From a phage, in assembly GCA_030873995.1 (NCBI GenBank), contig GCA_030873995.1_4701.1: DNA of 45,609 nt. One strand, written 5' to 3'. The position numbers and the translations under genes are program-made. Positions 21,848-42,105 of this stretch are shown in pieces (position 1 is the first letter of the stretch; each line of letters starts with the position of its first letter). Below the pieces are notes generated by a model that worked only from the letters and a program-made list of their open reading frames with translations, was not told the DNA's origin and ran no database searches.

Positions 21848-21997
21848 ATGAAAAAGCTGTTCAAATCTAAGAAGGTTGTAGGTGCACTAGTTGCATTGGC
21901 AATTGCTCTTGTTTCTGTAGGTCTTGGTGTAGACCTTGGCTCTGGCACGGAATCCTCTGTGACAGACGTGGTCTGCCAAGTGATCACCTGTGAATAA
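21848..21997 (+). CDS. small membrane protein (49 aa), lysis-associated candidate
   Basis: Not in the 60-aa track; N-terminal TM helix; AAAGGGAG RBS; lies between endolysin and spanin candidates. Confidence 0.45.
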   Translation: MKKLFKSKKVVGALVALAIALVSVGLGVDLGSGTESSVTDVVCQVITCE

Positions 21998-33565: not shown

Positions 33566-35554
33566 ATGGCTATTATTCAGAATGTACCGTGTCCTGCTTG
33601 CCAAAAGAACGGACATGATATTACTGGCAATCATTTAATGATCTTTGACGACGGGGCAGGGTACTGTAACCGTGGTCACTTCCATGATAACGGTAAACCT
33701 TATTACCACAAGCCGGAAGGTGGCATCGAGATAACCGAGTTACCTATTACTGGCAATATCAAATATACACCTTCTCAATTCAAAGAAATGGAGAAGGAAG
33801 GGAAGATAAGCGACCCTAAGCTACGCGCCATCGCACTTGGTGGTATGCGTATGAAAGACCGTTGGGAGGTTATGAATGAGCAAGAAAGGGCAGACCAAGA
33901 AGCAGAGTGGAAACTTGATGTTGAATGGTTCCTCACGCTTAAGCGTAAGAACCTTGTATCCCGTCACATTCGAGGTGACATCGCAGCAATGTACGATGTG
34001 CGCGTTGGACACGATGAAGAGGGAAGAGTCAACCGTCACTATTATCCACGATATGAAAAGGGTGTGTTTGTTGGAGCAAAATGCCGGACGTTGCCGAAGG
34101 ATTTTAAGTTCGGACACCTAGGTAAACTCTTTGGTATGCAAGACCTTTTCGGTATGAACACTTTGTCTCACGTGTTAGACAAGGGGAGACGAAAGGATTG
34201 CTTGCTTATTGTAGGCGGTGAACTTGATGCACTAGCAGCGCAGCAGATGCTCCTTGATTCTGCCAAAGGTACTAAGTGGGAAGGTCAGCCATACCATGTA
34301 TGGTCTGTCAATAAAGGTGAGTCTTGCCTTGAAGAGATAGTGCAAAACCGTGAGCACATAGCCCAATTCAAGAAGATTATATGGGGCTTTGATGGCGACG
34401 AGGTGGGGCAGAAGCAGAACCAACAAGCTGCTCGCCTGTTTCCTGGCAAATCCTACATCCTCGAATATCCATCTGGTTGCAAAGATGCTAACAAGGCATT
34501 GATGGCTGGCAAGGCTAAAGAGTTTGTAGATGCATGGTTTAATGCCAAGTCATCTGATGAAGTCTTTGGTAGCCAGATTAAATCTATCGCATCTCAAAGG
34601 GATAAGCTCAAGGCTGCACGTCCAGAGCAAGGACTATCATGGCCTTGGCCTAAGCTGAACAAGGTAACGCTAGGTATTCGTAAGAACCAACTTATCATTG
34701 TAGGCGCAGGCTCTGGTGTAGGTAAGACTGAGTTCCTTCGTGAAGTAGTTAAGCACCTCATTGAAGAACACGGTGAATCTGTAGGCATCATTTCTACAGA
34801 AGACCCGATGGTCAAGGTGTCCCGTGCTTTTATCGGCAAGTGGATTGATAAGCGTATTGAGTTACCGCCAACCAACGACCCGAAAGAAGATGGATACCGT
34901 GAGGTGTTCGACTACACCGAGGAAGAGGCTAACGCCGCCATTGATTATGTAGCTGATACAGGTAAGCTGTTTGTAGCTGACCTAGAGGGTGACTATTCGA
35001 TGGAAAAGGTAGAGCAAACTTGCCTAGAGTTTGAGGCTATGGGCATTTCTAATATCATCATTGATAACTTAACGGGGATTAAATTAGATGAGCGTGCTTT
35101 TGGTGGGAAGGTTGGTGCACTTGATGAATGCGTCAAGCGGATTGGTACTATCAAAGACCGACACCCGGTTACTATATTCCTTGTATCACACCTTACACGT
35201 CCTCCGGCAAACCGTACCCAACACGAAGAAGGTGGCGAGGTTATCCTTTCTGACTTCCGAGGTTCAGGCGCTATCGGATTCTGGGCATCTTACGCCTTGG
35301 GGATTGAGCGTAATACAAGAGCTGAAACGCTTGATGAACGGACTACCACGTACATCTCATGTGTCAAAGACCGCGACCAAGGTATCTACACTGGAACCAA
35401 GGTCATGCTTAAGGGTGACATTCAAACCGGACGTTTAATGGAACCACAAGCCCGTACTAAGTCATTTGATACAGGTGAAGCAAGGCAACAAGAAGTGCCG
35501 GATTTACCGGACACTATAGAAGAGACAACTTTTGACGATGAACAGGAGTTTTAA
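33566..35554 (+). CDS. DNA primase/helicase (gp4-like)
   Basis: 662 aa; N-terminal Cys4 zinc ribbon, Walker A GAGSGVGKT; acidic C-terminus ending DDEQEF. Confidence 0.9.
   Translation: MAIIQNVPCPACQKNGHDITGNHLMIFDDGAGYCNRGHFHDNGKPYYHKPEGGIEITELPITGNIKYTPSQFKEMEKEGKISDPKLRAIALGGMRMKDRWEVMNEQERADQEAEWKLDVEWFLTLKRKNLVSRHIRGDIAAMYDVRVGHDEEGRVNRHYYPRYEKGVFVGAKCRTLPKDFKFGHLGKLFGMQDLFGMNTLSHVLDKGRRKDCLLIVGGELDALAAQQMLLDSAKGTKWEGQPYHVWSVNKGESCLEEIVQNREHIAQFKKIIWGFDGDEVGQKQNQQAARLFPGKSYILEYPSGCKDANKALMAGKAKEFVDAWFNAKSSDEVFGSQIKSIASQRDKLKAARPEQGLSWPWPKLNKVTLGIRKNQLIIVGAGSGVGKTEFLREVVKHLIEEHGESVGIISTEDPMVKVSRAFIGKWIDKRIELPPTNDPKEDGYREVFDYTEEEANAAIDYVADTGKLFVADLEGDYSMEKVEQTCLEFEAMGISNIIIDNLTGIKLDERAFGGKVGALDECVKRIGTIKDRHPVTIFLVSHLTRPPANRTQHEEGGEVILSDFRGSGAIGFWASYALGIERNTRAETLDERTTTYISCVKDRDQGIYTGTKVMLKGDIQTGRLMEPQARTKSFDTGEARQQEVPDLPDTIEETTFDDEQEF
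35502..35524 (+). promoter_or_regulatory. phage-RNAP promoter embedded in the primase/helicase C-terminal coding tail
   Basis: ATTTACCGGACACTATAGAAGAG, encodes DLPDTIEE. Confidence 0.75.
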
Positions 35555-35715
35555 TGGAAATTATTAAACCAGTATTGAATATCGGTATTGAGATCCTATT
35601 CATGCTTGTGATCGCAGATTATGCTGCACGATATGGCTTCAAGAAAGCAGTGAAACTTATCGTTGCATCTGGTTTTATGATGTCAATGTTCTTTATTGTA
35701 ACACGCCTTATCTAG
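35554..35715 (+). CDS. small membrane protein (53 aa)
   Basis: TAATG coupling to the primase/helicase stop; two hydrophobic segments. Confidence 0.45.
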   Translation: MEIIKPVLNIGIEILFMLVIADYAARYGFKKAVKLIVASGFMMSMFFIVTRLI

Positions 35716-35787: not shown

Positions 35788-36471
35788 ATGTATAAATTAG
35801 TATTGAATGTAGGTGATTATGTTCGTAACATCAATGAAGCCTCACGTCGTTATCGTTGCCGTGGTGTAGTGGCTCGTGTAAGTGAGAACATGTATCATGT
35901 AGAATATGATGATGGTATTAAGGCTTCTTATCACAAGAAAACCGCACATAAATATCTTGAAAAGGTTGTAGAGGTAAACAATCAATGTAAGTGCATACAT
36001 GATGAGGTTTGCGATAAATGTGCTCGCCAGATGCTTAAGAATTTCCTAGCCCCTCTTTATTATGGTGCTGGTCCTCAAACACTAGCAGAGTACATGGCAG
36101 AAAAGAAAACCACACTCAAGAAAGAGCGTCGCAATGTAATCACTGGTAAGACTCAAAGTGGGATGATTAAGCAATGTGGCACTGCATTAGGTGTTACACA
36201 GTTCAATACTCGTGCATTGGGTAAATCCACAGGGCAAGCTATGGTGAAAATTGGTGAAGCTATGATGCACCCAAATGTGCCTGTGCGAATCTTGGATGTT
36301 GACCATGCAATCACAGAGCATGGCACACCACGGCGTGTAGCTAATAATCATTTCGCCGACACTATAGAAGGTATTATTCGTAAGCAAGGGTTGAAGGGTC
36401 TTCACATCTTAAATGGTGAAGAATTACTGTACCTACCTATCGTTACTGAAGAAACATACGTGAATATCTAA
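35788..36471 (+). CDS. hypothetical protein (227 aa)
   Basis: GGAG RBS before ATG 35788; Cys cluster CKCIHDEVCDKC; contains a degenerate promoter-like site. Confidence 0.55.
   Translation: MYKLVLNVGDYVRNINEASRRYRCRGVVARVSENMYHVEYDDGIKASYHKKTAHKYLEKVVEVNNQCKCIHDEVCDKCARQMLKNFLAPLYYGAGPQTLAEYMAEKKTTLKKERRNVITGKTQSGMIKQCGTALGVTQFNTRALGKSTGQAMVKIGEAMMHPNVPVRILDVDHAITEHGTPRRVANNHFADTIEGIIRKQGLKGLHILNGEELLYLPIVTEETYVNI
36350..36372 (+). promoter_or_regulatory. degenerate promoter-like site inside CDS 35788..36471
   Basis: ATTTCGCCGACACTATAGAAGGT; four mismatches at -13 to -10. Confidence 0.25.
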
Positions 36472-37031: not shown

Positions 37032-37236
37032 AGTCAGTAAGGTTTGCTCTTGCGGTAAAGGTTATCGCAGTCGTATTGATGGTAAGTGTGGACATTGTAG
37101 GTCTAAGAAAGAGGCTGCTTTGTTTGACAAGTACCACAATGAATTAGCCTATAACTACCCACATCTAACACCTAATTCTTTATTAGGGCTTGGTTATAGG
37201 GCTAAATACTTTGGAGCAATCTATGAAATCAATTGA
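37018..37236 (+). CDS. small zinc-ribbon-like protein (72 aa)
   Basis: CSCG...CGHC motif; AGAGG RBS; overlaps the DNAP start. Confidence 0.45.
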   Translation: MKTIKVSKVCSCGKGYRSRIDGKCGHCRSKKEAALFDKYHNELAYNYPHLTPNSLLGLGYRAKYFGAIYEIN

Positions 37237-39769
37237 TTGGAAGAAGGAGGCAGAAGGTCGTATCCTCGTGATGGATGCGGAAGCTAAAGGACTCCTTGAC
37301 GCTATCCGATATGGACACCGTGAAGATGTGCATATCATTTGCTGCATGGATTTGCTTACTACCGAGGAGTTTCTCTTCTTTGACCCGTATGAGATGCGTG
37401 ACCCTGAAGCAAGAGAACGCCTGAAGGAATGGGAAGGTCATCAAGATGGAACCTTGGTTGACGGTGTTAACTTCCTGAAGCACTGTGAGGCTATTGTGTC
37501 GCAGAACTTCCTAGGGTATGACGGTCTTCTCTTTGAGAAAGCATTCCCTGATATTTGGAAAGGCTTTAACTATACCGAGAAGCGCGGTAAGGGCAGACTC
37601 CGTGCTGACCTGTGTCCGGTGCGAGTCATGGATACGCTGGTGATGAGTCGCCTGTTAAACCCCGATAGACGCCTTCCTCCGCAAGCATATGCCAAAGGTA
37701 TGGGTAACGTCGCCCCTCACTCAATTGAGGCGCACGGCATCCGTATAGGTCGCTATAAACCGGAGAACGAGGACTGGTCTAAACTAACTGACCACATGGT
37801 TCACCGTGTACGTGAGGACGTGGCGATTGGTCGTGACTTGTTCCTCTGGCTCTTTAACGGGGAATGGATGGAGCACAAACGCCGTGGCGTGAATAAACGC
37901 ACGGGCCTAGGCATTGAGACAGCCTTCCACATGGAGTCCATTGTGGCGCTGGAGATGAGCCGTCAGGCCGAGCGCGGGTTCCGTCTGGACATCGACAAGG
38001 CTTTGGCCCGATGCGAAGAATTGGACGCTAAGATTGATGAGACAGTCGCAGCGTTCCGCCCTCACATGCCTATGCGTATCAAGTCTAAACCTTTTAAACC
38101 GGAAGAAAAGAATGAAGTATGCCAACGCGCAAATGAGTATGGAGCTAGCAACAATATACCTACTGTCCTTGACCCCTCACACTTTCTTCATGCCGAGAGA
38201 CGAGGAGATCGCAAGACAGTATGGAGTGTCACTACTAAGTCTGGTGATTGGTCGGCTAGTGTCAAGAAAGACTTTCCTCACCTTAGAGGAAACCGTAATG
38301 ACACGCCAAGTATCAAGTGGATTGGTGCTTACTCGCCTGTTACTTTCGAAGAGATTCCCTTGGGTAACAGGGATACAGTTAAGCAAGTGCTCTATGATTA
38401 TGGATGGAAAGGTGTTGAATTTAACGATACCGAGCAAGCGCATCTCGATGAGTATGGCGTATTACCAAAACCTTGGAGTGGAAAGATAAATGAAAAGTCT
38501 CTTACTTTATGGCAAGAGAGAGCCGCACGTGAAGGTAAAACAGTACCCGATTGGTGCTTGGGTATCGCTGCATGGTACATACTCGTATCCCGTCGTGGTC
38601 AGATACTCAACCGTGGTGACGTTGAAGCCTTCAACGAGAAGGGAACGTGGCCCTCGCAGGCTGGTGTACGAAAGTGTCGCGGCCTTGTACCTGTAGCATT
38701 CAACAAGGAGCTAGGAATCAATGCGCAGCAATACTACGAAAGGTACGGATGCTGGCCTACGTCAGACAAGGATGACGGGGAGTGGCGTGTTCCAGCTGTT
38801 GCTATTAGCATTGGCACTTCTACGTTCCGTATGCGTCATCGTAACGTGGTTAATATTCCTGCCCGTGGCTTGTATCCTTTACGTGATTTATTCATAGCAG
38901 GTAAAGGCAAGCTAATCCTTGGTTGTGACGGTGCAGGTCTTGAACTGCGCGTCCTGTCTCACTTCATGAATGACCCTGAGTACCAAGAGATTGTATTGCA
39001 TGGTGACATCCATACACATAACCAGATGAAGGCTGGTCTTCCTAAGCGTGACATGGCGAAGACGTTTATATACGCTTTCCTCTATGGCTCTGGTATAGCC
39101 AACCTTGCAGCAGTATGTGGTGTTACCGAGGAAGAAATGAAGGAAGTTGTGGCAAGATTCGAGATTGAACTGCCGTCTCTTGCACGTCTTCGTGAGAATG
39201 TTATCGCACAAGGTAACAAGTTTGGCTACCTGCAAGCACCTGATGGGCATTGGGGTCGCATCCGCATGTCTGGTGGTGAACTTAAAGAGCACACGATGCT
39301 TAACGTATTACTCCAGATGACTGGCTCTTTGTGTATGAAATATGCATTAGTCAAGGCATTTGCAGTAATGCGCAAGGAAGGTGTAGCCTTGGATGCTATG
39401 GGAAATCCTTGTGGTGTGGCTAACGTGCATGATGAAATCCAGATGGAAGTTCCTGAAGAGGAGGTCTTGTATCTTAACTACGACCTACCTTTCACCTTAG
39501 ATGGGTTCGAAACAGAGAAGGCTGCCGTGCAAGCAGTGTTCGATGCAGAGGAGAAACGTGTTCATGTGGATTCTGAAGGACGTATGTGGTCTGCTGCAAA
39601 CCTCGTTAGTGTTGATGCTGATGCTGGTGTATTGCATTGCCAGCGCCGTTATCACCGTGCAGGTCATATCATTGCCGACGCCATGACTTGGGCAGGGCAG
39701 TATCTGAAGATGCGTTGCCCGATGGCAGGCGAATATAAGATTGGCGCAAGTTGGAAGGAAACACACTGA
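37223..39769 (+). CDS. DNA polymerase (family A, gp5-like) with 3'-5' exonuclease domain
   Basis: Exo motif VMDAEAKGL; pol motifs DGAGLELR, RDMAKTFIYAFLYGSG, VHDEIQ; start placed at RBS-supported ATG 37223. Confidence 0.9.
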   Translation: MKSIDWKKEAEGRILVMDAEAKGLLDAIRYGHREDVHIICCMDLLTTEEFLFFDPYEMRDPEARERLKEWEGHQDGTLVDGVNFLKHCEAIVSQNFLGYDGLLFEKAFPDIWKGFNYTEKRGKGRLRADLCPVRVMDTLVMSRLLNPDRRLPPQAYAKGMGNVAPHSIEAHGIRIGRYKPENEDWSKLTDHMVHRVREDVAIGRDLFLWLFNGEWMEHKRRGVNKRTGLGIETAFHMESIVALEMSRQAERGFRLDIDKALARCEELDAKIDETVAAFRPHMPMRIKSKPFKPEEKNEVCQRANEYGASNNIPTVLDPSHFLHAERRGDRKTVWSVTTKSGDWSASVKKDFPHLRGNRNDTPSIKWIGAYSPVTFEEIPLGNRDTVKQVLYDYGWKGVEFNDTEQAHLDEYGVLPKPWSGKINEKSLTLWQERAAREGKTVPDWCLGIAAWYILVSRRGQILNRGDVEAFNEKGTWPSQAGVRKCRGLVPVAFNKELGINAQQYYERYGCWPTSDKDDGEWRVPAVAISIGTSTFRMRHRNVVNIPARGLYPLRDLFIAGKGKLILGCDGAGLELRVLSHFMNDPEYQEIVLHGDIHTHNQMKAGLPKRDMAKTFIYAFLYGSGIANLAAVCGVTEEEMKEVVARFEIELPSLARLRENVIAQGNKFGYLQAPDGHWGRIRMSGGELKEHTMLNVLLQMTGSLCMKYALVKAFAVMRKEGVALDAMGNPCGVANVHDEIQMEVPEEEVLYLNYDLPFTLDGFETEKAAVQAVFDAEEKRVHVDSEGRMWSAANLVSVDADAGVLHCQRRYHRAGHIIADAMTWAGQYLKMRCPMAGEYKIGASWKETH

Positions 39770-39885
39770 TGGATAGGCTTGACATTGTTTACCTATTCTT
39801 CACTTTCTTTCTTACACTCCTTATGCTTGCTTGTTATGGGAGTATGAGACTAGATATACCTGATGAAGAAGAGGGTTACGACTAA
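39769..39885 (+). CDS. tiny membrane peptide (38 aa), paralog 1
   Basis: ATG overlaps the DNAP stop (TGATG); hydrophobic core then acidic DIPDEEEGYD tail. Confidence 0.4.
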   Translation: MDRLDIVYLFFTFFLTLLMLACYGSMRLDIPDEEEGYD

Positions 39886-39983
39886 TGCAAACTGCTTTTA
39901 TTATTCTTGGTATCATATTATTTATGGTAGTATTCTGGGCTTTCTCTGGCATTGACCCAGATTGTGATGGTAACTACGACTGA
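39885..39983 (+). CDS. tiny membrane peptide (32 aa), paralog 2
   Basis: TAATG coupling; hydrophobic core then GIDPDCDGNYD tail similar to 39769..39885. Confidence 0.4.
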   Translation: MQTAFIILGIILFMVVFWAFSGIDPDCDGNYD

Positions 39984-40021
39984 GTTATACTCAAGGTCAC
40001 TTACGAGTGGCCTTTATGAAT
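39984..40021 (+). promoter_or_regulatory. RNase III-type processing site candidate
   Basis: GTTATACTCAAGG - hairpin GGTCACT-TACG-AGTGGCC - CCTTTATGAAT. Confidence 0.45.
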
Positions 40022-40051
40022 AACTTACTCCCACACATTTTGTCTAACATG

Positions 40052-40074
40052 ATTTACTGGACACTATAGAAGGA
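40052..40074 (+). promoter_or_regulatory. phage-RNAP promoter
   Basis: ATTTACTGGACACTATAGAAGGA exact consensus; +1 G at 40069. Confidence 0.85.
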
Positions 40075-40138
40075 AAGCCTAGGTAATCTAGGTTTATAAG
40101 GTAGTATGGGTAATTAAGTAAATATAGGAGATATAAAT

Positions 40139-40516
40139 ATGTCAATGGTAACTACTCTGGTATTCGTAGCTCAATACTTTCGTGGTTTGGCTAACAAGTT
40201 CAAAGCTAAGGCTATCAAAGCTATTGAGTCTCGCATTGAAGCAGTACATGCAGAGCAGTTTGAAGTTGAAGAACATCGTAGTTCTCAAATGATTGACTGC
40301 CACAATCGCTACTATGCATCTCGTGATGACCTTAATGCACGCCAAGTCAAAGAGGTTGAAGAGATGCTGGCACGTCACCAGCAAGAGCGAGACAGCCTGA
40401 AAGCTGAATTTGAAGAGAACAAGGCATCCATCGCCCTTGTACATCAAGCCGCATCTGACAGCCTGAAGAAAGAGATTGTTATGCTGGAAATTGAGTTAGA
40501 CAACCTGACCAAATAA
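40139..40516 (+). CDS. hypothetical coiled-coil protein (125 aa)
   Basis: Own promoter at 40052 and AT-rich leader with GGAG RBS. Confidence 0.55.
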   Translation: MSMVTTLVFVAQYFRGLANKFKAKAIKAIESRIEAVHAEQFEVEEHRSSQMIDCHNRYYASRDDLNARQVKEVEEMLARHQQERDSLKAEFEENKASIALVHQAASDSLKKEIVMLEIELDNLTK

Positions 40517-40593: not shown

Positions 40594-41400
40594 ATGGCAC
40601 GTGGTGATTTTGATTTTGGTGCTCAGGTTACTAAAGCTGAAGGTAAGGTTTTTAAGAACCCTGAAGTTGGTGATCATGAAGCAGTAATCTCTGGCATCAT
40701 TCATGTGGGTTCCTTCCAAGATATCTTTAAGAAAGGTAATACCACTGAAGTTAAGAAGCCAGCAAACTTTGTTCTTGTTAAGATTGTACTGATGGGTGAC
40801 GATGACAAGAACGAAGATGATTCTCGCATGGAACAATGGATGGCTGTTCCTCTGAAGTCTGGTGATAAGGCAACACTGACTAAGTTCCTGAATGCAGTTG
40901 ACCCCAAAGAATTGCTTGGTGGCTTCGATGATTTTATCGGGGAATGCCTGACTGCAACTATGGTTGGCTCTGGTGACAAGAATGACGATGGTTCATTCAA
41001 GTATGTTAACTGGAAAGGATTCGGTGGTATGCCTGACAAGCTTAAGAAACTTGTCATTGCTCAGGTTGAAGAAGAGGGTCTGTCTATGACAGGTCACATC
41101 ACCTTCGACAAGCTGACCAAAGAAATCCTTGATGACATTCCTGCTAACTTGGTACGCCAATACTTCCTTAATGAAACACCTCGTGGTAAGAACCTGTCTG
41201 TTGCTGGTTCTCACGTAGAAGCAATCATTAAAGCTGCTCGTGAAGAAGACCCAGAGTGGAAGAAGGCTAAGAAGAAAGACGAGGAAGATGCTACCCCAGC
41301 TAATCGTAAATCTCTGGATACTGGTGAGTCTGTTCCGCAGGAAGTACCTGAAGCAGAAGATACTCCTGCACCGGAGATGGATGAGGACGCGGAATACTAA
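40594..41400 (+). CDS. hypothetical protein with acidic C-terminal tail (possible ssDNA-binding protein)
   Basis: 268 aa; own promoter 40515; AGGAG RBS; C-terminus EMDEDAEY resembles gp2.5-type acidic tails. Confidence 0.55.
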   Translation: MARGDFDFGAQVTKAEGKVFKNPEVGDHEAVISGIIHVGSFQDIFKKGNTTEVKKPANFVLVKIVLMGDDDKNEDDSRMEQWMAVPLKSGDKATLTKFLNAVDPKELLGGFDDFIGECLTATMVGSGDKNDDGSFKYVNWKGFGGMPDKLKKLVIAQVEEEGLSMTGHITFDKLTKEILDDIPANLVRQYFLNETPRGKNLSVAGSHVEAIIKAAREEDPEWKKAKKKDEEDATPANRKSLDTGESVPQEVPEAEDTPAPEMDEDAEY

Positions 41401-41733: not shown

Positions 41734-42105
41734 ATGTTCAAGATTGAAACTATCGTAAACCGTGTTGTTAAAGGTGCTGCTCTGGTATCCGTTGAGTCTT
41801 TCATTATCGTCGATGAAGCTGATCAACTGGTAGCTGGTACTAAGGCTTACGATACCCGTGAAGAAGCTCAGGCTAAGATTGACAGCATGGGTAACTTCGC
41901 TGCTGGTCTGGAGTTCGCTCGTGCTTGCTTCCCTGAGCAGGCTGACAAAGCTCAGATTGGTAAGGCTAATATCGTAGCTGAATATCTGGATTGGGTTGCT
42001 GCTGGTAAACCAGTGAAAGAAGTTAAGGCTGCTGAAGAAGCTGAAGCTCCAGCAGAAGAAGTAGCTGCACCGGAAACTCCGGTAAGCGAAGAGGAAGAAT
42101 TTTGA
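41734..42105 (+). CDS. hypothetical protein with acidic C-terminal tail ending EEEEF
   Basis: 123 aa; own promoter 41661; AAAGGAG RBS. Confidence 0.6.
   Translation: MFKIETIVNRVVKGAALVSVESFIIVDEADQLVAGTKAYDTREEAQAKIDSMGNFAAGLEFARACFPEQADKAQIGKANIVAEYLDWVAAGKPVKEVKAAEEAEAPAEEVAAPETPVSEEEEF

Follow-up and report, generated by a model that had tools for sequence, protein, structure and literature searches.

The closest described relatives of the peptides considered here are gp13.5 and gp14 of phages K1-5 and K1E and gp15 of SP6, very small products encoded after the DNA polymerase gene, which annotations have listed as hypothetical proteins since 2004. In this work, we analyzed the corresponding locus in a phage DNA of 45,609 nucleotides (GenBank assembly GCA_030873995.1, contig GCA_030873995.1_4701.1), further referred to as the window, in which two open reading frames (ORFs) of 38 and 32 aa, designated P1 and P2, follow the polymerase gene. 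Purifying selection on these peptides is strongest on their acidic C-terminal 9-12 residues, and closely related phages carry both of them, either of them or none; this cassette behaviour is the main new point of the present analysis.

Identity and distribution of P1 and P2

The window represents a complete, circularly permuted Vectrevirus genome (Autographiviridae, Molineuxvirinae) of the K1-5/K1E/LL11 type. All its long ORFs are on the + strand, and the analyzed region is 98.3% identical to that of phage LL11. The gene of a family A DNA polymerase of 848 aa (PHROG 17, E-value 3.4e-122) was placed at 37223-39769 (+), its start being set by homology with the 2547-nt gene of LL11; the longest ORF opens at a TTG codon at 37190, and the TGA stop codon occupies 39767-39769. 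P1 (MDRLDIVYLFFTFFLTLLMLACYGSMRLDIPDEEEGYD; 39769-39885, +) extends from ATG at 39769-39771 to TAA at 39883-39885, and P2 (MQTAFIILGIILFMVVFWAFSGIDPDCDGNYD; 39885-39983, +) from ATG at 39885-39887 to TGA at 39981-39983.

P1 corresponds to gp13.5 of K1-5/K1E (PHROG 15860, E-value 1.6e-26 across positions 1-38 of 38), and P2 to gp14 of the same phages and to SP6 gp15 (PHROG 4539, E-value 2.9e-17; 90.6% identity with SP6 gp15). In LL11, the homolog CPT_LL11_019 differs from P1 by one residue and CPT_LL11_020 is identical to P2. The K1-5, K1E and SP6 proteins belong to the same families, occupy the same post-polymerase position and share 76-100% identity with P1 and P2, with no substantive difference; they are labelled 'hypothetical protein' or 'unknown', so membership in these families gives no function. 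A preliminary description of the locus, made from the sequence alone, had noted the two ORFs as too short to appear in its ORF track; they are not unannotated novelties, as their GenBank entries in K1-5, K1E and SP6 show. In this respect the result is an ordinary one: both hypothetical genes are already known from SP6/K1-5-like phages.

The same description had named a lack of conservation in related phages among the findings that would refute it, and conservation proved to be strong. P1 gave tblastn matches (E-value limit 10) in 68 phage records, in 67 of which the match spans 80% of the peptide or more, and P2 is present in 69 phage records. The hosts are E. coli, Citrobacter, Raoultella and K. 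aerogenes for the P1 records, and E. coli and Salmonella for those of P2. P1 lies directly downstream of an SP6-type polymerase gene with the sole exception of NTNC80A, where an HNH endonuclease gene has been inserted between the two and P1 is kept with a new N-terminus. P2 is located between the stop codon of the polymerase gene (or of P1) and a conserved hairpin.

Searches beyond the phage records pointed to the same group of viruses. A large protein collection queried with the concatenated P1+P2 sequence returned only P1 clusters (nine in number; the contig has about 44-45 kb for eight of them and 15.8 kb for the ninth), and a single P2 cluster was found in a representative library of 1.84 billion proteins. 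Degenerate DNA patterns designed for both tails recovered the same phage group only, in IMG/VR and in metagenomes. Among 185,579 prokaryotic genomes, the P2 tail pattern had no match, and the one match of the P1 tail pattern, in a Methanospirillum metagenome-assembled genome, was rejected as a chance occurrence, being situated at the end of a non-hydrophobic stretch that stop codons interrupt upstream. Judging from these searches, members of the family occur in Vectrevirus/Zindervirus phages only.

Coding potential and selection

Selection was assessed on distinct nucleotide sequences, 13 for P1 and 12 for P2, taken from GenBank phages and IMG/VR contigs. The pooled ratio of nonsynonymous to synonymous polymorphism (pN/pS) in the annotated frame was 0.17 for P1 and 0.23 for P2, as compared with 0.70-1.08 in the other two frames and with 0.20 for the last 125 codons of the polymerase gene. 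Within the peptides the constraint is uneven: pN/pS was about 0.11 in the tail of P1 (codons 25-38) and 0.29 in its helix, and about 0.07 in the tail of P2 (codons 21-32) and 0.36 in its helix. The invariant residues are P31, D32, E33, E35, G36, Y37 and D38 in P1, and D24, P25, D26, D28, G29, N30, Y31 and D32 in P2, several of these tail residues being written with differing synonymous codons. Moreover, the intact copies contain no indels across approximately 25% amino acid divergence. This frame-specific selection indicates that P1 and P2 are real protein-coding genes with the acidic tail as the selected part, and from it we infer that they are almost certainly translated.

The rarity of such ORFs was evaluated by comparing ATG-initiated ORFs of 25-60 aa in the six frames of the window with those of 100 Markov-1 random genomes. 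The window contains 180 such ORFs, 12 of which have a transmembrane (TM)-like segment of 19 residues; P1 and P2 are the only ones that add to it an acidic tail free of K and R. In the random genomes, ORFs combining both features occurred with a mean of 0.01, i.e., about 200 times more rarely than the two observed.

These data bear on two readings in which the peptides themselves would be irrelevant. According to the first, P1 and P2 are not genes at all, being chance open frames in T-rich DNA that are conserved through some other role of the DNA or RNA. The ORFs are indeed short, and P1 was left unannotated in, e.g., vB_EcoP_B, R4596 and CC1; however, the frame-specific signal, the expectation of 0.01 against two observed, the indel-free intact copies and an Rfam scan of 39600-40200, in which nothing relevant was found, all stand against this reading, the probability of which we consider nearly negligible. 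According to the second, the act of translation matters and its products do not, the ORFs either holding ribosomes on the transcript as far as the hairpin, for the sake of stability or of access to the processing site, or representing neutral filler. In its favour are the position of the last stop codon, which for any terminal ORF is found within the outer stem, exactly 9 nt upstream of the inner hairpin, and the frequent loss of both genes. Yet the amino acids are conserved with polymerase-like stringency, invariant tail residues are kept by varying synonymous codons, and in phages devoid of the ORFs the stop codon of the polymerase gene itself fills this position, which makes a spacer ORF unnecessary; we regard this reading as highly unlikely. 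Both readings are contradicted by the selection data.

An alternative-frame ORF of 30 aa (39863-39955, +), which spans the P1/P2 junction and is open in many relatives, was also considered. It was rejected, as pN/pS out of frame amounted to 0.7-1.1, and its openness is probably a by-product of the constraint acting on P1 and P2.

With the functional part narrowed to a 9-residue invariant acidic tail, P1 and P2 constitute a clean and well-constrained test case for phage microproteins.

Presence, absence and decay of the two genes

The distribution of the peptides was compared among phages whose polymerase C-termini are approximately 90-99.5% identical to that encoded in the window. Both peptides are present in K1-5, LL11 and the window, P1 only in the CrRp3-like L009, R4596, Raoultella P3a and CC1, P2 only in SP6, UAB_Phi78, Kenya-K30, mutPK1A2 and L011, and neither of them in L010, L012, L013, L015, KpnP_VR702 and IME184. 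In the peptide-free phages, the polymerase stop codon adjoins the hairpin exactly (...CACTGA|GTTATACTC). When mapped on a neighbour-joining tree built from the 3' end of the polymerase gene, each of the two genes required at least four gains or losses. Furthermore, copies in various stages of decay were found: P1 of ULINTec6 is disrupted by a +4-nt frameshift, that of Mt1B1_P10 has a nonsense codon four residues ahead of its end, P0009 carries a frameshifted variant, and in L007, what is left of P2 has several frameshifts and no longer ends in a stop codon.

The coexistence of both, either and none of the genes, together with their decayed copies, leads to the conclusion that P1 and P2 are dispensable and separable cassettes, and their accessory character can be accepted with high confidence. 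A possible route of their deletion or duplication is offered by the motif ACTRA, which is common to the ends of all three ORFs (...ACACACTGA, ...TACGACTAA, ...TACGACTGA): deletion and duplication between short direct repeats are well known in T7-type phages, and the shared ends would permit such events here. Natural phages with both, either or neither gene exist, and the cassettes can be removed or added with the flanking signals undisturbed.

The slot itself, delimited by the polymerase stop codon and the gene beginning at 40139, is a variable accessory hotspot. In relatives, it contains a gene of a 194-aa nucleotidyltransferase (PHROG 1614), a gene of an 86-95-aa protein (weakly matching PHROG 35123) or HNH genes; such other cargo was found in L004, L006, L007, L012, L013, L015, L017, L018, L024, L045 and L048. 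Accessory genes of hotspots are described, in one preprint at least, as commonly serving defence or counter-defence (bioRxiv 10.1101/2024.10.15.618418).

In a more distant clade (L031-L036), with polymerase C-termini about 52% identical, two consecutive tiny hydrophobic ORFs of 30 aa (MTLYDITGGLLLVLLNLALIWTLGSYIFKE) and 32 aa (MSIWFYVQATVLISVTLFIWGFIIVASFQNSN) are located approximately 12-206 nt past the polymerase stop codon and are followed by an ORF of 249 aa. They are without acidic tails, match no PHROG family, and homology with P1 or P2 was not detectable.

Gene junctions and start signals

The coordinates and lengths of the two ORFs, as well as the TGATG (polymerase gene/P1) and TAATG (P1/P2) junctions by which they had been described as chained to the polymerase stop codon, proved correct on re-reading of the sequence, with a 1-base overlap at each junction. 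Shine-Dalgarno-like motifs lie 9 nt upstream of both starts, i.e., AAGGA at 39755-39759 (+) for P1, within the final polymerase codons W-K-E-T-H, and GAGGG at 39871-39875 (+) for P2, within the codons of the P1 tail; the LL11 annotation places ribosome binding sites at equivalent positions for both peptides. An internal Shine-Dalgarno-like sequence is kept in every intact copy. The 1-base overlap is retained in all intact relatives, with stop codons varying between TGA, TAA and TAG and start codons between ATG and GTG, which results in junctions of the form TGATG, TAATG or TAGTG. The preservation of the overlap despite varying stop and start codons is consistent with a termination-reinitiation mechanism. 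Of the translational coupling proposed in the preliminary description, the part concerning the overlap stands, as it is kept in every intact relative; as a special feature of this locus it does not, as the same 1-base overlap occurs at 7 of the 54 gene junctions of LL11 (other LL11 junctions overlap by 4 nt).

We also considered, and rejected, a fusion of the polymerase with P1 through a programmed -1 frameshift. The frame of P1 does not open before 39751, no slippery site of the X XXY YYZ type is present in 39751-39769, and the arrangement is missing in the P2-only and peptide-free phages.

Hydrophobic helix, acidic tail and topology

Each ORF had been described as a single hydrophobic helix followed by an acidic tail, and on this point hydropathy and structure prediction agree. 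The best Kyte-Doolittle mean over 19 residues was 2.25 for P1 and 2.68 for P2, and AlphaFold2, run on single sequences, gave a helix at residues 3-28 of P1 and 2-20 of P2, with tails of low confidence. In both peptides, the hydrophobic helix reaches at least about 18-20 residues, enough to span a bilayer, and there is good reason to predict that P1 and P2 are membrane peptides. The tail pattern DxPDxxxGYD, previously assigned to both, is exact in P1 (DIPDEEEGYD) and is fitted only loosely by P2 (IDPDCDGNYD); the pattern common to the two is xPDx[DE]xxYD-COOH. The profile-profile alignment of P1 with P2 covers 9 columns (44% identity, E-value 0.054), and the peptides are probably diverged tandem duplicates, which would have overlapping functions.

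The net charge is -6 for P1 and -4 for P2. There is no K or R in P2, and P1 has R3 and usually R27, the latter being replaced by Q in several variants; P1 of NTNC80A is devoid of any positive charge. Topology of such peptides is governed by the positive-inside rule, and short acidic flanks can be exported by the membrane potential, as in YidC substrates. In the LL11 record, both peptides are marked 'TMD N in C out'. On this basis, the N-in/C-out topology appears more likely.

The characterization of P1 and P2 as translationally coupled membrane peptides is supported in silico. The earlier observation is confirmed, and its interpretation is partly supported; for the membrane-targeted host inhibitors that it saw as candidates in the peptides, no direct evidence was found in the family, structure and literature searches.

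Possible modes of action

Among characterized proteins, MgrB, MgtS and AcrZ are small single-pass regulators of bacterial membrane proteins. Like P1 and P2, regulators of this type have fewer than 50 residues, one TM helix and a short functional tail, and they act by binding a larger membrane protein, a mode which we consider the likeliest for P1 and P2; unlike them, P1 and P2 are phage-encoded and strongly acidic, lack the usual basic flank and show no Pfam or NCBIfam similarity. A second parallel is provided by HK97 gp15 and T4 Imm and Sp, inner-membrane exclusion proteins altering the envelope of the infected cell. They are likewise small, dispensable and phage-encoded, with presence varying between related phages, and differ in being larger, non-homologous to P1 and P2, and expressed from prophages or early genes. 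To our knowledge, there is no known exclusion phenotype for SP6-like phages.

The model that we favour sees in P1 and P2 accessory inner-membrane peptides of Vectrevirus whose tail acts on the envelope with conditional benefit, and the chances that it is correct as a whole seem evenly balanced. Ribosomes ending the polymerase gene would reinitiate on P1 and then on P2, and the peptides would be synthesized during the replication phase, in amounts of up to about that of the polymerase. They would then insert into the inner membrane in the N-in/C-out orientation, probably without the Sec machinery, as is proposed on the grounds that P2 lacks positive charge and that the only positive charge of several P1 variants is N-terminal. 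The membrane potential would drive the short acidic tails outward, thus exposing the conserved tails at the periplasmic face, where they would act as effectors by binding a host envelope protein or divalent cations. The resulting change of the envelope might help only in some hosts or conditions, e.g., by excluding a second phage, blunting a membrane-based defence or modulating a transporter or sensor. The part of the model concerning tail-mediated action on a host envelope target is put forward tentatively, as somewhat less than probable. Phages of the genus Vectrevirus find use against pathogenic E. coli, K1 strains included, and effects on host range, exclusion or defence evasion would therefore be of practical relevance.

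Several points weigh against this model. Comparisons of P1 and P2 with Pfam, NCBIfam, PADLOC and PDB gave no significant match to a characterized protein, no family among the PADLOC defence and counter-defence profiles was hit at E-values up to 10, and a full-text literature search gave no function, P1 and P2 being listed as 'unknown' at most (e.g., the P2 homolog is given as 'Unknown' in the UAB_Phi78 genome paper (PMC4837284)). Frequent loss of the genes could equally mean a very small contribution to fitness. As the 1-base overlap is common in the genome, coupling is not distinctive and gives little sign of a special link to the polymerase, and the paralogy of P1 and P2 is supported over the nine tail residues, at the E-value given above. 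Regarding topology, R27 stands just past the helix in most P1 variants, which favours C-in, and the charged determinants of P2 are acidic residues only.

The resemblance of the P2 tail to a calcium-binding loop was also considered. The sequence D24-P-D26-C-D28-G29 fits the DxDxDG pattern, and the Pro at loop position 2 is shared with lanmodulin; in contrast to an EF-hand, the P2 chain ends at loop position 9, the Glu of position 12 is missing, and P1 has no such motif. The phmmer matches in PDB had E-values of 0.8-1.1 (lanmodulin 0.8) and disappeared with the family profile, and Pfam indicated no EF-hand. The assignment of the P2 tail as an EF-hand/DxDxDG loop was rejected, and the likeness is kept as a motif-level lead only.

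A different role would be one in lysis or membrane perturbation, where the peptides would oligomerise like holins, antiholins or type I toxins and alter the membrane potential or the triggering of a pinholin/signal-arrest-release (SAR) endolysin system. Like holins, pinholins and antiholins, which have one or more TM helices, P1 and P2 are small phage membrane proteins, and their size and single hydrophobic helix resemble those of small pore-forming or depolarising peptides. The C-termini of holins are typically basic and cytoplasmic, whereas the tails of P1 and P2 have a net charge of -4 to -6, with no K or R in P2. Mid-infection depolarisation would set off premature lysis where a SAR endolysin is present. 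The related phage KBNP1315 has been reported to lyse its host by a depolarisation-sensitive pinholin/SAR-endolysin route (PMC4640515), which would agree with such a role. However, P1 and P2 are located in the DNA-metabolism module, outside the lysis cassette (on the LL11 map, the holin and spanins are far off), and a separate holin homolog is encoded at 21848-21997 (PHROG 4712). Moreover, the stronger selection on the tail than on the helix argues for specific binding rather than bulk membrane damage. On account of the module, the acidic tails and the holin homolog, P1 and P2 were rejected as holin candidates, and we consider an involvement in lysis or membrane perturbation unlikely.

The position of the peptides next to the polymerase gene suggests yet another role, in the replisome. 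In T7, gp4 and gp2.5 have acidic, Phe-terminated tails that bind gp5, and phi29 organises its replication through small membrane proteins. If the tails of P1 and P2 were cytoplasmic (N-out/C-in), they could imitate the acidic docking tails of the helicase and the single-stranded DNA-binding protein (SSB), and thereby hold freshly synthesized polymerase at the inner membrane or titrate it there. The peptides and the polymerase would be co-synthesized owing to the coupling of their genes, P1 (...DEEEGYD) and P2 (...DCDGNYD) lie directly downstream of this gene, and in most P1 variants R27 is found on the C-side of the helix. Acidic, aromatic-ended tails also occur in other proteins of the genome (all +): in the primase/helicase (...TTFDDEQEF; 35435-35554), in a 268-aa protein (...EMDEDAEY; PHROG 862, 40594-41400), which may be an SSB, and in a 123-aa protein (...VSEEEEF; PHROG 4429, 41734-42105). 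With three such protein ends in the genome, which resemble the docking tails of T7 gp4 and gp2.5, acidic tails with a terminal aromatic residue appear as a theme of the replication module.

Like the tails of T7 gp4 and gp2.5, those of P1 and P2 are short, very acidic, provided with an aromatic residue near the end and encoded in the replication module; unlike them, they are joined to a membrane helix and predicted to be periplasmic. The last residue of both peptides is Asp, the aromatic one being penultimate (GYD in P1, NYD in P2), so that the terminal aromatic residue by which such tails are defined is missing. Many relatives with polymerase C-termini at least 90% identical have neither peptide, NTNC80A keeps P1 despite the broken link to the polymerase gene, and the general hotspot character of the slot makes adjacency weak evidence. 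The C-out orientation noted in the LL11 record and the Q27 variants of P1 without positive charge on the C-side of the helix also disagree with a cytoplasmic tail. Altogether, a replisome tether or decoy seems improbable. The specific variant in which the peptides, made by reinitiation, would be membrane-anchored docking-tail mimics that capture or tether the polymerase, forming an optional cassette that localises or throttles a T7-type replisome, is distinctly improbable; if it were true, a tiny membrane ORF on the primase/helicase stop codon would fit the same scheme.

This ORF (35554-35715, +) encodes 53 aa with two hydrophobic segments and belongs to PHROG 15806 (E-value 2.5e-38), for which no function is assigned in PHROG. 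It begins on the final base of the stop codon of the primase/helicase ORF (33566-35554). LL11 has 76 nt at this position and seems to be without the ORF.

Transcript, hairpin and neighbouring genes

Returning to the accessory membrane peptides, their transcription was considered. The nearest SP6-type promoter core upstream of the polymerase gene is ACACTATAGAAG at 36359-36370 (+), an exact match, and the next exact one lies at 40061-40072, with no exact core in between, which places the polymerase gene, P1 and P2 on one transcript. This transcript likely starts at the 36359 promoter, judging from the promoter matches; no sigma-70 promoter signal above chance was found. It is the middle, DNA-metabolism transcript, on which P1 and P2 are flanked by the polymerase stop codon and the conserved hairpin.

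The extended RNA hairpin occupies 39978-40030 (+), with a predicted energy of -19.7 kcal/mol (z-score -3.09; none of 200 shuffled sequences was as stable). Its inner stem, AAGGTCACT-TACG-AGTGGCCTT, lies at 39993-40014, and the stop codon of P2 falls inside the outer stem. Relatives have this hairpin whether or not they carry P1 and P2, and it lies 9 nt past the last stop codon in all of them, be it that of the polymerase gene, P1 or P2. No intrinsic-terminator pattern was found on the + strand and the hairpin is not followed by a T-run, which makes a processing or stability element, or a pause site or terminator for the phage RNA polymerase (RNAP), likelier than a classical intrinsic terminator. 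The hairpin may be an RNase III-type processing/stability element or a phage-RNAP pause site.

The second promoter (ATTTACTGGACACTATAGAAGGAAAG, 40052-40077, +), which contains the exact core at 40061-40072, serves the next unit; in the whole window, 20 matches to the core with at most two mismatches were found, as compared with 5.05 expected. The first gene of this unit (40139-40516, +; 125 aa, PHROG 7450) is widely labelled 'polysaccharide chain length determinant protein'. Pfam does not support this label, the best match being UPF0242 with an E-value of 0.0035, under the cutoff of this family, and the label seems to have spread from record to record without support.

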